Below, one piece after another: positions 15,625-22,085 of a stretch of DNA of 23,759 nt (its first letter is position 1; each line of letters opens with the position of its first letter). The stretch covers positions 1 to 23,759 of the forward strand of contig JBFMBF010000018.1 in assembly GCA_040755315.1 (NCBI GenBank). Direction: 5' to 3'. The position numbers and the translations under genes are program-made. Source of the stretch: Candidatus Hadarchaeota archaeon (lineage in GTDB: Archaea > Hadarchaeota > Hadarchaeia > Hadarchaeales > Hadarchaeaceae). The notes below the pieces were generated by a model. It saw only the letters and a list, made by a program, of their open reading frames with translations. It did not search any database and was not told the DNA's origin.

Positions 15625-15963
15625 TCATGCCGTGGGCGTTGCCAGCCAGTATTCAGCTTCTTTTCTTATCTCCTTTAGGTACTGATTGAAGCCGTCGGAG
15701 CTTAAGTAGTAAACCCGCTTCCCCTCCAGCCGCCTTGTCGCCACCATCCCCATGTCCCTCATCGGTCTCATCAAAACGTAGAAATGCTTGCGGTCAGCGG
15801 CCGCAGCTAGGTCCAATCCCAACACTGCCGCCAGTTCCTCGATCTTCTTTGGCGACTCCCTCAATGTTCTGATGACCTTCACGGCCTCGGGTTTCAGTGC
15901 CGCACTTTTTGGGTGGTTGCCATACGCCAATGCCAGCAGCCTTTGAGGACCTCTATCTTCCAT
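15625..15963 (-). CDS. Winged-helix DNA-binding protein
   Basis: IRTLRESPKKIEELAAVLG...MRDMGMV..RR.EGKRVYYLS wHTH pattern; GGTGA SD upstream. Confidence 0.75.
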   Translation of the reverse strand: MEDRGPQRLLALAYGNHPKSAALKPEAVKVIRTLRESPKKIEELAAVLGLDLAAAADRKHFYVLMRPMRDMGMVATRRLEGKRVYYLSSDGFNQYLKEIRKEAEYWLATPTA

Positions 15964-16196: not shown

Positions 16197-16700
16197 CTAA
16201 ACCTCTGGTGGGTAACCAAAGGTCTCAACCAGAACATCGGAAATCTTCTTAGATAACTTTCTTGCTAAAATAGATATGTTTTTCTGTTTATTATCAAAAT
16301 ATTCTTTTAATTTTAATTTTAAATTATTAAGTTTTTGTTCTACGTCTGTCTTATTTATTTCTTCCCTTAGTTTTGCCTTTATTTCTTTTTCATATAGGAG
16401 ATCTATTTCCCTCTCAATCTCCCCGAGGGCTGCCACCTCAAGAAAAGTCATTAGGGCATCGGTGGCTTCTTCTCCTGTTTCTGTCAGTTTTACGAGTTTT
16501 AATCTTCCAGATTTTCTGAAAACTACTAATTTTAAACTTTCAAGGTCTTTTAACACATTATAAGTGTGAGCATATGTACTTTCTATATTTTTTGCGATTT
16601 TTGTTTGGTAAACTGGTTTATTTTCTTTTTTGAGAAAAATCATTGTATTTACTGGCTTTTCTTGTAAAAAAAGTGCCGTTGCACCTACATTTTTTCTCAA
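16197..16700 (-). CDS. MarR-like winged-helix DNA-binding protein with C-terminal helical extension; AT-rich gene
   Basis: FLQEKP...YQTKIAKNIESTYAHTYNVLKDLE..KLV.F.KSGRLKLVKLTETG; TTG start after a GGGTGA SD. Confidence 0.8.
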   Translation of the reverse strand: MRKNVGATALFLQEKPVNTMIFLKKENKPVYQTKIAKNIESTYAHTYNVLKDLESLKLVVFRKSGRLKLVKLTETGEEATDALMTFLEVAALGEIEREIDLLYEKEIKAKLREEINKTDVEQKLNNLKLKLKEYFDNKQKNISILARKLSKKISDVLVETFGYPPEV

Positions 16701-19279: not shown

Positions 19280-20806
19280 TTACGCTTTGACAGGCTCCCC
19301 AGCCGACTCGAAAGAAATCTTGCCACAGATGAGCGAATTTATTGTTTCTGGAAGTTTTTTGGCCGGAAGTCTGACCTGCGCCGTCGTGTCCCTTTCTCTC
19401 AGAGTGACGGTGTCGTCCTCCAGCGTTCTGTAGTCCACCGTCACGCAATATGGGGTTCCGACCTCGTCTGCGCGGAGGTAGCGTCGCCCTATCGAACCTG
19501 AATCATCGTATCCCACCACCAGCCCCTCACACCTCAGCATCCCGCAGAGTTCTGAAGCCTTCTCAGGCAGGCCGTCCTTGTTCTGCAGAGGAAAAACCCC
19601 GGCTTGCACAGGAGCCATGCCCTTCTTCAGCTTCAGATAACTGCGCTTACCGTCCGAGAAGTAGGCGTGCTCGAGAAGGCAGTAGAACGGGCGGTCGATT
19701 CCATATGAAGGCTCGACGACATGGCAGACGACCTTCTTCCCGCCGGCAAATGCCGTCAGGTCCTCGCCGCTCTGCTGGATGTGCCTAGAGAGGTCGTAGT
19801 CTGTCCGGTAGGCTATCCCCGTCACCTCTATCCAGCCGAACCTCTTTGTCATTATCTCCGCGTCCCAGGTCTCGCTAGAGTAGTGCGACCTCTGGCCCGC
19901 CCCCTGCTCCCTGAACCTGATGGCCTCGGCCGGGATGCCGAGCTCCTGGATGAAAATCTTGGTCAACGCCATGTAGTAGGCCATGAGCTGGTTGCATATC
20001 ATCTTTTTTTCCACGGCTTCCCCGGCCGCGACTTCGATGAAATTCTCTTTTCCATCGGCCTGGTCCTCAGCCTGCCAGAGCCTGAGCTTCTCCCCGGCCA
20101 TCCTCTCGAAGTTCGGGTGGCGCGGGTCCTCTGGGTCGAAGAAAACCTCGGCCTCGGCCATCGTGAACTCTCTCAACCTTATCATGCCCTGCCTTGGAGA
20201 AATCTCGTTCCTGTAACCCTTTCCAATCTGGACGACGCCGAATGGCAAACGCCCGCGGGCGAGGCGCTGGAGCCTCTTGAAGTTTATGAATATCCCCTGC
20301 GCCGTCTCGGGCCTCAGGTAGCCGACCCTCTTGCTCCCAGGGCCTATCGCAGTCTTGAACATCGCGTTGAAGTCGAAGATTTCACCTAGCCCGCCGCCGC
20401 ACTCCTGGCACTTGACGCCGCGCTCTCTTATGAACTTGTTCATTTCCTCCCTGCCCATGCCCTCGATGTCCTTCCCCGTTTCCTCCTTTGCGATGTCCGT
20501 AGCCTTGAAAGCCGCGCCGCACTTCTTGCACTCGACCATGGCGTCGACGAAATGCTCGACGTGGCCGCTGGCCTTCAGCACTTCCTCCGGCGTGACGGTC
20601 GGGGAGTCGACCTCAAGGAAGCCTTCGCCCAGCACATAGAGGCTGCGCCACTTTTCTATTATCTTGTTCTTCAGGGCGGCCCCCAGGGGACCATAGTCAT
20701 AAAATCCTCCGAGGCCTCCGTAAATCTCGAAGGCAGGCCAGATGAAGCCGCGCCTGAGAGCAAGCTCCATGACATCCTGCTGTTTCACCTTTACACCAAA
20801 ACCCAA
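19280..20806 (-). CDS. glyS: Glycine--tRNA ligase (alpha2, archaeal/eukaryotic type)
   Basis: RRGF.WPAFEIYGG..GFYDYGPLG, YLRPETAQG, RNEISPRQG..RLREF, EPSYGIDR and SGSIGRRY.RADE.GTP; true start may be GTG 20788. Confidence 0.97.
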   Translation of the reverse strand: MGFGVKVKQQDVMELALRRGFIWPAFEIYGGLGGFYDYGPLGAALKNKIIEKWRSLYVLGEGFLEVDSPTVTPEEVLKASGHVEHFVDAMVECKKCGAAFKATDIAKEETGKDIEGMGREEMNKFIRERGVKCQECGGGLGEIFDFNAMFKTAIGPGSKRVGYLRPETAQGIFINFKRLQRLARGRLPFGVVQIGKGYRNEISPRQGMIRLREFTMAEAEVFFDPEDPRHPNFERMAGEKLRLWQAEDQADGKENFIEVAAGEAVEKKMICNQLMAYYMALTKIFIQELGIPAEAIRFREQGAGQRSHYSSETWDAEIMTKRFGWIEVTGIAYRTDYDLSRHIQQSGEDLTAFAGGKKVVCHVVEPSYGIDRPFYCLLEHAYFSDGKRSYLKLKKGMAPVQAGVFPLQNKDGLPEKASELCGMLRCEGLVVGYDDSGSIGRRYLRADEVGTPYCVTVDYRTLEDDTVTLRERDTTAQVRLPAKKLPETINSLICGKISFESAGEPVKA

Positions 20807-20846
20807 CTGTTCTCGGACGATAAAAACTATCGTGCGCTTGCCTTGG

Positions 20847-21201
20847 ATGACATAGCTATGTCATGACATAGCTGTATCACTCTCGGGATGGTGACATAGC
20901 TGTATCACTCGCAAACCACTCGCTTTTCCAGCACCAGCGCTTTTCCGCCAGCAGATTTAATTGAGCTTGCCAGACCCCGCATGTGCTCCAACTTGGTGTG
21001 CTCCCATACCGACTGCTGCAACTTTATGGCTCGAAACTTTCGCAAGCGTCTGCATACCTTTAGCCTAGTCGCGTTGTCCAACTCTTTGATGTCGTAAATT
21101 ATCAGGTACGACATAGCTGTGTCACCCGCCAAGCGTTTGCGTGGGGGCACCTTATAAACGAGAAAAATAGCGCAAATTTTAAGGTGACATAGCTGTGTCA
21201 C
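20847..21201. repeat. Five co-oriented copies of an 18-bp near-palindrome (R/A)YGACATAGCTRTRTCAY
   Basis: 20847-20864 ATGACATAGCTATGTCAT (perfect palindrome); 20863-20880 ATGACATAGCTGTATCAC; 20891-20908 GTGACATAGCTGTATCAC; 21108-21125 ACGACATAGCTGTGTCAC; 21184-21201 GTGACATAGCTGTGTCAC. Confidence 0.93.
20905..21114 (-). CDS. Stand-alone Cas2/VapD/PaaX-ChrB_N-like ferredoxin-fold protein (69 aa)
   Basis: MSYLIIYDI...RLKVCRRLRK..AIKLQQSVWE...LA..I..AGGKA.VLE; ATG follows a GGGTGA SD; TTTATAA box at ~21152-21158. Confidence 0.75.
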   Translation of the reverse strand: MSYLIIYDIKELDNATRLKVCRRLRKFRAIKLQQSVWEHTKLEHMRGLASSIKSAGGKALVLEKRVVCE

Positions 21202-21248: not shown

Positions 21249-22085
21249 TCACTCAAGCAGGACGTGGAGAAGGTCAACGTCCCTGACGACGCCAATCAGC
21301 TTCTCTTCGGCTGAAAGAACGGGTGTCTGCTCGGCCTTCTGTTGCTTCATGAGCTGCGCGGCCTTGCTCACGCCGGTTTTTTTAGTTATCGTAACCAGGT
21401 CCTTTTTCATTATCTCCTTTACCGGCTTTTCCGGCACCTTGATCTGGCTCTTCGTGATGTATATGCGGACCTCGCTGTCCCATGTCCAGCTGTCCCCCTC
21501 GCTCCTCCCTGACATTTGGCTCATCTTGGACCCCACCTCTACATCACTGACCTTGATGATGTCCTCGTCGCCAATTGTCCCGACCAGCTTGCCGTTCTCG
21601 TCAATCACTGGGACGACGTGGAACCCTGACAGCTCCATGAGTTGTAGAGCCGCCTTCAAAGGCGTCCCGTCCCACACGGCTATGACGTGGGGGCGCATGT
21701 ATTCGGCCGCAGGTTTCTCGGCTCCAATCTCGGCAATAGCCCGGTAGACTATGTCCCTGACAGTGATTATCCCGGCGAGCTTCCCGTCCTGCAAAACCGG
21801 CAGCCTCCTTGCTCTAGATTTCAGAAAGATATCCGCCGCCGCCTTTATGTCGTCGTCTAGCCTGACCGTTGGAACATCCCTGTCGACAAGCATCGCCAGC
21901 TGATCCTCGTCCGGCTTCTCGAAGAGCCTCCGGGTCGTGACCATACCCACGAGCTCCTCCGTCCCCTTCTTCACGACCGGGACAGCGCTGGCCTTGAGCT
22001 TCCTGAGTAGCTCCATGGCGTCGACCCTGGAGCCGGGTATTTCCACCCACTTCACCTCTTTGGTCATCACGTCTTTGACTTTCAT
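21249..22085 (-). CDS. CBS domain protein (two CBS pairs)
   Basis: VKDVMT, RRLPVL..GKLAGIIT.RD, VPVID.NGKLVG and VKEIM repeats. Confidence 0.92.
   Translation of the reverse strand: MKVKDVMTKEVKWVEIPGSRVDAMELLRKLKASAVPVVKKGTEELVGMVTTRRLFEKPDEDQLAMLVDRDVPTVRLDDDIKAAADIFLKSRARRLPVLQDGKLAGIITVRDIVYRAIAEIGAEKPAAEYMRPHVIAVWDGTPLKAALQLMELSGFHVVPVIDENGKLVGTIGDEDIIKVSDVEVGSKMSQMSGRSEGDSWTWDSEVRIYITKSQIKVPEKPVKEIMKKDLVTITKKTGVSKAAQLMKQQKAEQTPVLSAEEKLIGVVRDVDLLHVLLE

Follow-up and report, generated by a model that had tools for sequence, protein, structure and literature searches.

A small Cas2/ChrB-N-like gene among its own palindromic sites in Hadarchaeota: a probable self-repressing DNA-binding cassette

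Described systems closest to the locus

Descriptions of Cas2 present it as a scaffold for spacer DNA; one account ascribes its origin to VapD toxins and mentions a transposon-borne Cas2 homologue as expected but not then found (PMC6452270). ChrB, a chromate-responsive repressor of Ochrobactrum tritici, binds, as a dimer, to an imperfect inverted repeat in its own promoter, and the genetic results reported for it include loss of repression and a constitutive reporter with either R18A or R23A (PMC3817168). RAYT genes, which are paired with REP/REPIN sequences, are presented as small genes among their own palindromes with lineage-specific pairing and dispersed orphan copies (PMC3337134). How does the present locus compare with these systems? 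It lies in a window of 23,759 nucleotides, contig C18 of a 1.21-Mb Hadarchaeota assembly (87% complete; G000 is the window's own genome), where a 69-aa gene is surrounded by copies of a palindrome.

The N-terminal domain of ChrB (PF20229) is homologous to the 69-aa protein (hhalign 96.6%, from a 66-sequence profile against the N-domain of a ChrB protein). A dimer, an inverted repeat at the own promoter and two helix arginines five residues apart would be common to both, as reported for ChrB (PMC3817168) and predicted for the cassette. Unlike ChrB, the 69-aa protein has no C-terminal sensor domain, no chr operon or other regulated operon and only unrelated neighbors, and the cassettes, which are mobile, carry two to nine lineage-specific sites on both sides of the gene and keep the Asp of Cas2. 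Cas2 (PF09827, TIGR01573), BPSL1038 and VapD have the ferredoxin fold and the YD and QxSV motifs in common with the 69-aa protein, and the predicted 69-aa dimer resembles them in placing D8 and S35 near its axis. It differs from Cas2 and VapD in that the model ends after the fourth strand, through which it apparently dimerizes. In contrast to CRISPR-associated Cas2, the gene is accompanied by neither cas1, other cas genes nor a regular array. In contrast to VapD, it has no adjacent antitoxin gene (VapX, VapY or VapW) and its neighbors vary, with a constant upstream gene (107 aa, no Pfam family) in the C42-type subfamily alone. Type III toxin-antitoxin systems have tandem structured RNA repeats ahead of the gene; no such repeats precede the 69-aa gene, and its sites lie outside the predicted transcript start. 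The PaaX central domain (PF20803) and the winged-helix/Cas2-like proteins of Patescibacteria belong to the same domain family at the edge of detection; in the Patescibacteria-type comparison, loci L113 and L116 have palindromes with AGCT/AGGT centers and Q34. Unlike PaaX, the 69-aa protein has no N-terminal winged helix and no C-terminal domain, and the missing winged helix leaves the Cas2-like domain as the sole candidate reader of DNA. The likeness to RAYT-REP holds for the family, but the window's own site has no orphan copy, no HUH/Y1 transposase is encoded, the sites are not inverted doublets but direct repeats that show no hairpin bias, and copies number in the tens rather than the hundreds.

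The cassette resembles ChrB-type autorepressors in its workings and RAYT/REP in its arrangement, and it belongs to no named system. A literature search of article full texts, few of them from subscription journals, returned no paper on this family and no report of Cas2 or VapD recognizing a specific DNA site. It is highly probable that the 69-aa protein binds its palindrome sequence-specifically, and we favor, with somewhat better than even confidence, the reading that gene and sites form a self-repressing DNA-binding cassette that is a low-cost genomic passenger and neither CRISPR nor toxin-antitoxin. The family suggests that a bare Cas2 fold can recognize DNA sequence, and its many natural protein-site pairs and two candidate specificity residues make this testable with a 69-residue protein and 16-bp oligonucleotides. 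If correct, the proposal would account for a class of 'cas2' genes annotated singly in Hadarchaeota and Aenigmarchaeota and offer a source of very small orthogonal repressor-operator pairs. The analysis adds held-out covariation tied to the dimer axis, the ChrB precedent, tests of orientation and hairpins, and a split of clades by IS66-type ends.

The window locus and its family

The palindrome had been described in a first-pass annotation as an 18-bp repeat in five copies around the 69-aa ORF, with the ATG and TGA each inside a copy and no further copy in the window. The five copies deviate from the 18-bp consensus by 2, 1, 0, 2 and 0 mismatches in coordinate order (copies 1-5; Table 1), compared with a mean of 0.02 matches in shuffled sequence; both codons lie where described, and no other copy was found in the window or, at up to three mismatches, elsewhere in the 1.21-Mb assembly. 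The repeat unit needs revision: the conserved unit is a 16-bp core, and copies 1 and 2 overlap by two bases. All five assembly-wide matches to the core at up to two mismatches are the window copies.

Table 1. Coordinates of the 69-aa gene, its sites and its neighbors in the window
Feature	Position	Strand	Basis or remark
CBS-domain gene, upstream neighbor, outside the module	21249..22085	-	Context
Palindromic site (copy 5), predicted operator, 26 bases upstream of the TATA box	21184..21201		Similar offset recurs in many homologous loci
Putative promoter: T-tract, TATA box (21158-21152) and conserved 20-base element ending at the next site	21125..21168	-	Function predicted from sequence
Palindromic site (copy 4) with the start codon inside; predicted operator over the transcription/translation start	21108..21125		Position
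69-aa basic protein (pI 10.0), Cas2/ChrB-N-like ferredoxin fold, predicted homodimer	20905..21114	-	ORF, profiles, models
Palindromic site (copy 3) with the stop codon inside	20891..20908		Sequence match
Palindromic site (copy 2) of the downstream array	20863..20880		Sequence match
Palindromic site (copy 1), last of the downstream array, perfect palindrome, abuts the preceding copy	20847..20864		Sequence match
T-rich element native to the glyS upstream region, undamaged beyond the cassette (context)	20820..20829	-	Similar stretch in most cassette-free relatives
glyS, downstream neighbor, outside the module (longest ORF given)	19280..20806	-	Context

The frame of the gene is open back to a GTG at 21252 (115 aa); the ATG is preferred because most close homologues start at ATG and the TATA box, which lies between copies 5 and 4, falls within the extension. 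The overlap of start codon and site recurs at L002, L006, L075-L078, L091, L092 and L095. Because one site adjoins the TATA box and another covers the start codon, the protein probably represses its own gene. However, pure self-repression does not explain the retention of D8 and S35, the persistence of downstream sites or the selection on the ORF.

The window promoter belongs to a genome-wide class (21 matches with a TATA box, mostly ahead of unrelated genes). It was considered as a cassette signature and rejected, as the element precedes about 20 unrelated genes. At the window position and about 20 places in G000, the class consists of a T-tract, TATA, six bases and a fixed 20-base element; such conservation downstream of TATA seems unusual. 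Four of these promoters (C5:40193, C13:6304, C17:13123 and C24:10930) run into a common stretch of about 45 bases without a clear ORF, possibly a small RNA or repeat family. Elsewhere in the window, two small ORFs on the reverse strand (15625-15963 and 16197-16700) have weak winged-helix/HTH matches below cut-off.

The 69-aa gene had been called an orphan Cas2-like gene, a term that applies locally, as a Pfam scan of 23 window proteins gave no cas gene and the spacers are irregular. It does not apply to the genome, in which the true cas1 and cas2 are adjacent on contig C24 and three more cassettes of the same build carry different palindromes, namely a paralogue on C42 and WE genes on C8 and C30. 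That the locus is a CRISPR remnant or an assembly artefact is scarcely credible. The Pfam Cas2 match to residues 1-42 exceeds its cut-off (24.0 bits versus 23.8) and some databases label homologues Cas2, but TIGR01573 stays below threshold (21.5 versus 24.5), no cas gene accompanies the locus, and repeats of 16 bp with spacers of 0 to about 60 bases are unlike a CRISPR array. An assembly artefact is ruled out because the same layout, with different palindromes, recurs in many independent assemblies. As for a viral or plasmid origin, viral contigs and plasmids contained no relative, and no viral structure matched at E <=0.001.

A profile of the 69-aa family matches 31 of 66 Hadarchaeota genomes, and named database homologues come from Hadarchaeota and Aenigmarchaeota; a search around one other archaeal genome found nothing. 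From 34 places, 30 loci were taken, comprising 25 stand-alone genes and five N-domains of 390-480-aa ORFs. The first-pass annotation had suggested looking for palindromes beside homologues, and they do co-occur: under a uniform rule, at least two related palindromes are present at 19 of 25 stand-alone loci and 3 of 29 control regions, and at least three at 17 of 25 and 0 of 29, respectively. Each lineage has its own palindrome sequence, and the loci lie at unrelated genome positions. Six of the 25 stand-alone loci have no cluster by this rule, among them three intact genes with no recognizable site (L023, L027 and L028). Two of the five fused loci score, on GC-rich matches unlike cassette sites.

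Several side groups accompany the main family. The domain is fused to longer proteins at L018, L020-L022 and L025 and in P0092 and P0105, two with DUF2117, without flanking site clusters. The WE cassettes of G000 (C8:27425-27805 and C30:6001-6440; L065, L066) encode 83-aa proteins without a Pfam match, and each cassette carries its own palindrome in four copies. WE proteins model as Cas2-like (best Foldseek E 2.9e-3, to Cas2), have mostly Glu at the Asp position and are accompanied by site clusters at 17 of 22 loci; hhalign of the WE subfamily against the 69-aa protein is not significant, and the fold alone links them. The C42 paralogue (C42:163-800, L029) lies behind the conserved 107-aa gene at a locus fixed in many relatives. 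A third subfamily with AT-rich palindromes precedes a probable cdc48 gene (L136-L141, L147; C25:14449-14598), and its Arg at the residue-34-equivalent position accompanies ATAT centers. The AT-rich distant loci L106, L108 and L111 have one site each, close to the promoter. L160-L162, detected only at the edge of the profile search, represent further distant subfamilies with their own non-TG palindromes.

Protein fold, covariation and the nature of the sites

The 69-aa protein is a stand-alone ferredoxin domain without a helix-turn-helix and without a Pfam match or motif of an HUH/Y1 transposase. In its AlphaFold model (pLDDT 91), four strands and two helices follow the ferredoxin order, with an Asp after strand 1 (D8) as in Cas2. 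The best Foldseek match is Cas2 SSO1404 (E 5.3e-4), and a wide structural search gave middling scores only (Z 7.5 to a Cas2 and 6.5 to PaaX). The Pfam models ChrB_N (16.4 bits versus a cut-off of 23) and PaaX_M stay below threshold. Pfam, Foldseek, the structural search and hhalign together bear out the Cas2/VapD fold with ChrB-N/PaaX likeness that had been recognized at the outset. Homodimer prediction scored 0.45 versus 0.08 for the best control, with contact agreement of at least 83% and pLDDT of at least 86 across runs; 20 of 30 solved homodimers and 1 of 23 single chains attain the mark set for a homodimer, which the protein may pass by likeness, because Cas2 dimers are already solved. 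The predicted contacts (34-34', 35-34' and 8-33') would place residues 34, 35 and 8 at the two-fold axis. Across 66 homologues, conservation reaches at least 90% at D8, R22, L24, A29, S35, W37 and G57, with R22 nearly invariant; among 22 close homologues, R17 never varies. Of 105 pairs, 38 are unsaturated, and their median dN/dS of 0.13 indicates that the gene is under purifying selection.

The palindromes covary with two residues of the protein. Among 32 curated loci (one row gapped), L18 occurs with TGA arms in 12 of 12 cases and Q, R or K18 with TGT arms in 19 of 19. Q34 occurs with AGCT or ACCT centers (20/20), which H, K or R34 never accompany; H34 goes with ACGT or AAAT centers (9/9), and K or R34 with all-AT centers (3/3). 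These alignments pair the outer bases with residue 18 and the central four with residue 34, which lies at the predicted dimer axis. The rules were found after the fact on these loci and were then written down before new loci were scored. Under a phylogenetic control, which leaves three concordant changes per trait and one independent pair on well-supported branches, the covariation is not significant (p = 1). The held-out set comprised 14 unseen loci, 12 of them named in advance and one without a site in the DNA at hand; the residue-34 rule holds for the majority center in 12 of 13, with seven of these 12 coming from a single clade that the training loci had already sampled. The residue-18 rule holds in 9 of 9 loci where it could be scored. 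Reference sites for one held-out scoring were picked after a first look at those loci. The informative held-out loci are L149, L152, L160 and L161; at L149, Q34 and mostly AGGT centers accompany a protein resembling the K/R34 all-AT group. L162 breaks the residue-34 rule, with K34 and ACCT at four of five centers.

R17 and R22 have the same spacing as R18 and R23 of ChrB, and we infer from this spacing and the ChrB homologue match that the two pairs correspond. On the basis of the covariation, the dimer model and the ChrB genetics, we propose that a dimer of the stand-alone Cas2/ChrB-N domain would bind the duplex form of its own 16-bp palindrome. In each subunit, helix 1 (R17, residue 18 and R22) would read one outer arm, and the central four bases would be read by residue 34, which lies on the predicted dimer axis.

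Are the sites DNA elements or RNA hairpins? Among 111 sites from 26 loci, arm mismatches on the sense strand divide evenly between G-T and A-C (39 versus 43, p 0.74), and 22 of the 111 sites contain both types. Such a pattern indicates that a hairpin is kept on neither strand, and it fits loose half-site recognition in duplex DNA. The sites are co-oriented at all 15 loci with at least two asymmetric centers, a count that overstates independence since the loci are related. A symmetric dimer does not require co-orientation, for which local copying is the explanation; as judged from mismatches and orientation, the sites are direct repeats and not RNA hairpins. Helical phasing of the sites gave no clear pattern.

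These observations bear on a VapD-like RNase toxin that is neutralized by repeat RNAs in the logic of type III toxin-antitoxin systems. The VapD/Cas2 fold with its conserved Asp would suit such a toxin, and some stand-alone VapD proteins are described as RNases (PMC11980593). However, it is very improbable here, given the even mismatches that keep a hairpin on no strand, irregular 16-bp sites that lie partly upstream of the promoter and partly after the stop codon, the intact genes without sites (L023, L027 and L028), common broken genes and sites without genes, and an Rfam search without a match. Of the three options first raised for the locus, a predicted autoregulated DNA-binding protein fits best, and an RNase paired with repeat RNAs is not supported.

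Insertion, loss and movement of the cassette

Gene and sites form a cassette of 310-520 bp with no fixed neighbor. The view that a module was inserted between the CBS gene and glyS agrees with the relatives: neither gene nor site is present at the glyS locus in any of 29, and the distance from the CBS gene to the glyS match is 45-238 bases in 24 of them versus 505 in the window; one of the others has an unrelated insert and four have no CBS gene upstream. The neighbors of other cassettes are unrelated housekeeping genes, none recurrent. An 8-base direct match near both ends of the window cassette was judged to be chance.

An empty site with one repeat, which had been suggested as a further sign, is not seen at glyS (0/29) but occurs between a 4Fe-4S protein gene and hycI. 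There, G004 has a full cassette, three other genomes have exactly one site, and a fourth has a worn remnant of the cassette; these gene-less footprints indicate deletion between sites. As local direct repeats, the sites would allow crossover to expand or shrink arrays, delete the gene and leave solo sites. Movement by recombination at the repeats, the third option, is therefore supported for gene loss but not shown for gain. At L179:1480-1580, a cassette-type promoter is followed by one site and no gene, as expected from crossover between start- and stop-codon copies.

A sister metagenomic lineage points to one route of gain. It comprises 18 loci, some being the same site in two assemblies and five frameshifted, in which an element of 495-555 bp, ending in 14-bp terminal repeats, encloses the cassette; of 10 complete copies, 8 are flanked by perfect 8-bp target duplications. 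The ends match those of an intact IS66-family transposase element in the window's genome, which also has an 8-bp duplication. This lineage thus matches a non-autonomous IS66 derivative (MITE or passenger-carrying), unlike the window copy and most other lineages, which have no detectable terminal repeats: these were found in 3 of 21 tested cassettes, all of the TGT clade, and the best candidate at the window copy has 6-7 mismatches of 14, which is chance level, although worn ends are possible. The comparison of ends shows IS66-type carriage as a mobilization route for the sister clade, not for the window copy. Capture between IS66-type ends looks secondary, because midpoint rooting nests the TGT clade among TGA-type proteins and the start codon of L079 retains a relic half-site of the TGA type; erosion of older ends may account for their absence elsewhere. 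We propose that new positions would be reached at least partly via capture between IS66-type terminal repeats and transposition in trans, and that the cassette would be a passenger, sometimes fixed at one locus. If so, it would be an example of a Cas2-like gene carried among repeat arrays by a derivative of a DDE transposon.

The intact element (C6:8545-9958, L217) lies just upstream of one promoter of the conserved class, and three more IS66-type ends are found near contig edges in G000. Two WE loci also have IS66-type ends.

Sites also occur away from any gene. The C42 paralogue's site has 13 orphan copies at seven places in the window's genome; three relatives contain 17 (G003), 9 and 23 (G005) orphan sites; and a TGA-type site is present in 24 of 66 genomes, compared with none for the reversed pattern. 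Gene remnants lie beside 2 of 27 orphan regions. In two orphan pairs of G003, the left part of the IS66-type element is joined to its right end and the promoter and gene are gone.

The orphans raise the possibility that the protein is also an enzyme. A Cas2-fold dimer that reads its 16-bp site by a residue code would nick or recombine double-stranded DNA at the site axis with a D8/S35 center, copying sites, building arrays and moving its own gene without Cas1 in a RAYT-like manner. We regard both the enzyme and this extended scheme as unlikely. D8 and S35 are conserved at the level given above, and their equivalents in Enterococcus Cas2 are described as holding Mg2+ against the prespacer DNA backbone (PMC10491678). 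In addition to the scattered sites of the paralogue, G003 and G005, the co-oriented arrays, an orphan array that has spacers in common with a cassette's downstream array, and a cassette (L002) bounded by sites within about 20 bases of both neighbors' stop codons would be in line with such activity. However, an enzyme of this kind would cut its own sites, which are intact, neither an HUH motif nor another integrase is present, the window's site has no orphan copy, and some orphans are mere deletion relics of the IS66-type element; moreover, the WE subfamily has mostly Glu for the Asp, and the ChrB homologue examined has Gln there. If true, such an enzyme would make the cassette a self-propagating element of a new class, and an extant model for how an ancestor of Cas2 became tied to repeat arrays and transposons before CRISPR.

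A host transcription factor with a small regulon, for which the scattered sites are operators and the downstream sites tune the glyS promoter, is less probable still. Purifying selection, a gap of about 18 bases between the last site and the T-rich element ahead of glyS, two subfamilies at fixed loci (behind the 107-aa gene and before the probable cdc48) and orphan clusters kept between two species of one genus are what such a regulator would predict. Against this, neighbors differ at nearly every locus and have no common function, all 29 relatives are cassette-free at glyS, many orphans lie between convergent gene ends, pseudogenes are common, no sensor domain is present, and operators of a symmetric dimer need no co-orientation. 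The self-repressing passenger remains the preferred reading.

Two further observations concern sites near or inside host genes. In a probable queE (by motifs; C12:16994, L187-L216), two different cognate palindromes lie in frame in several genomes, where codon conservation has its highest window in the gene (0.42 versus a mean of 0.23), not clearly beyond other windows. The orphan sites of L180 and L181 directly precede small genes resembling GIY-YIG nucleases by motif.
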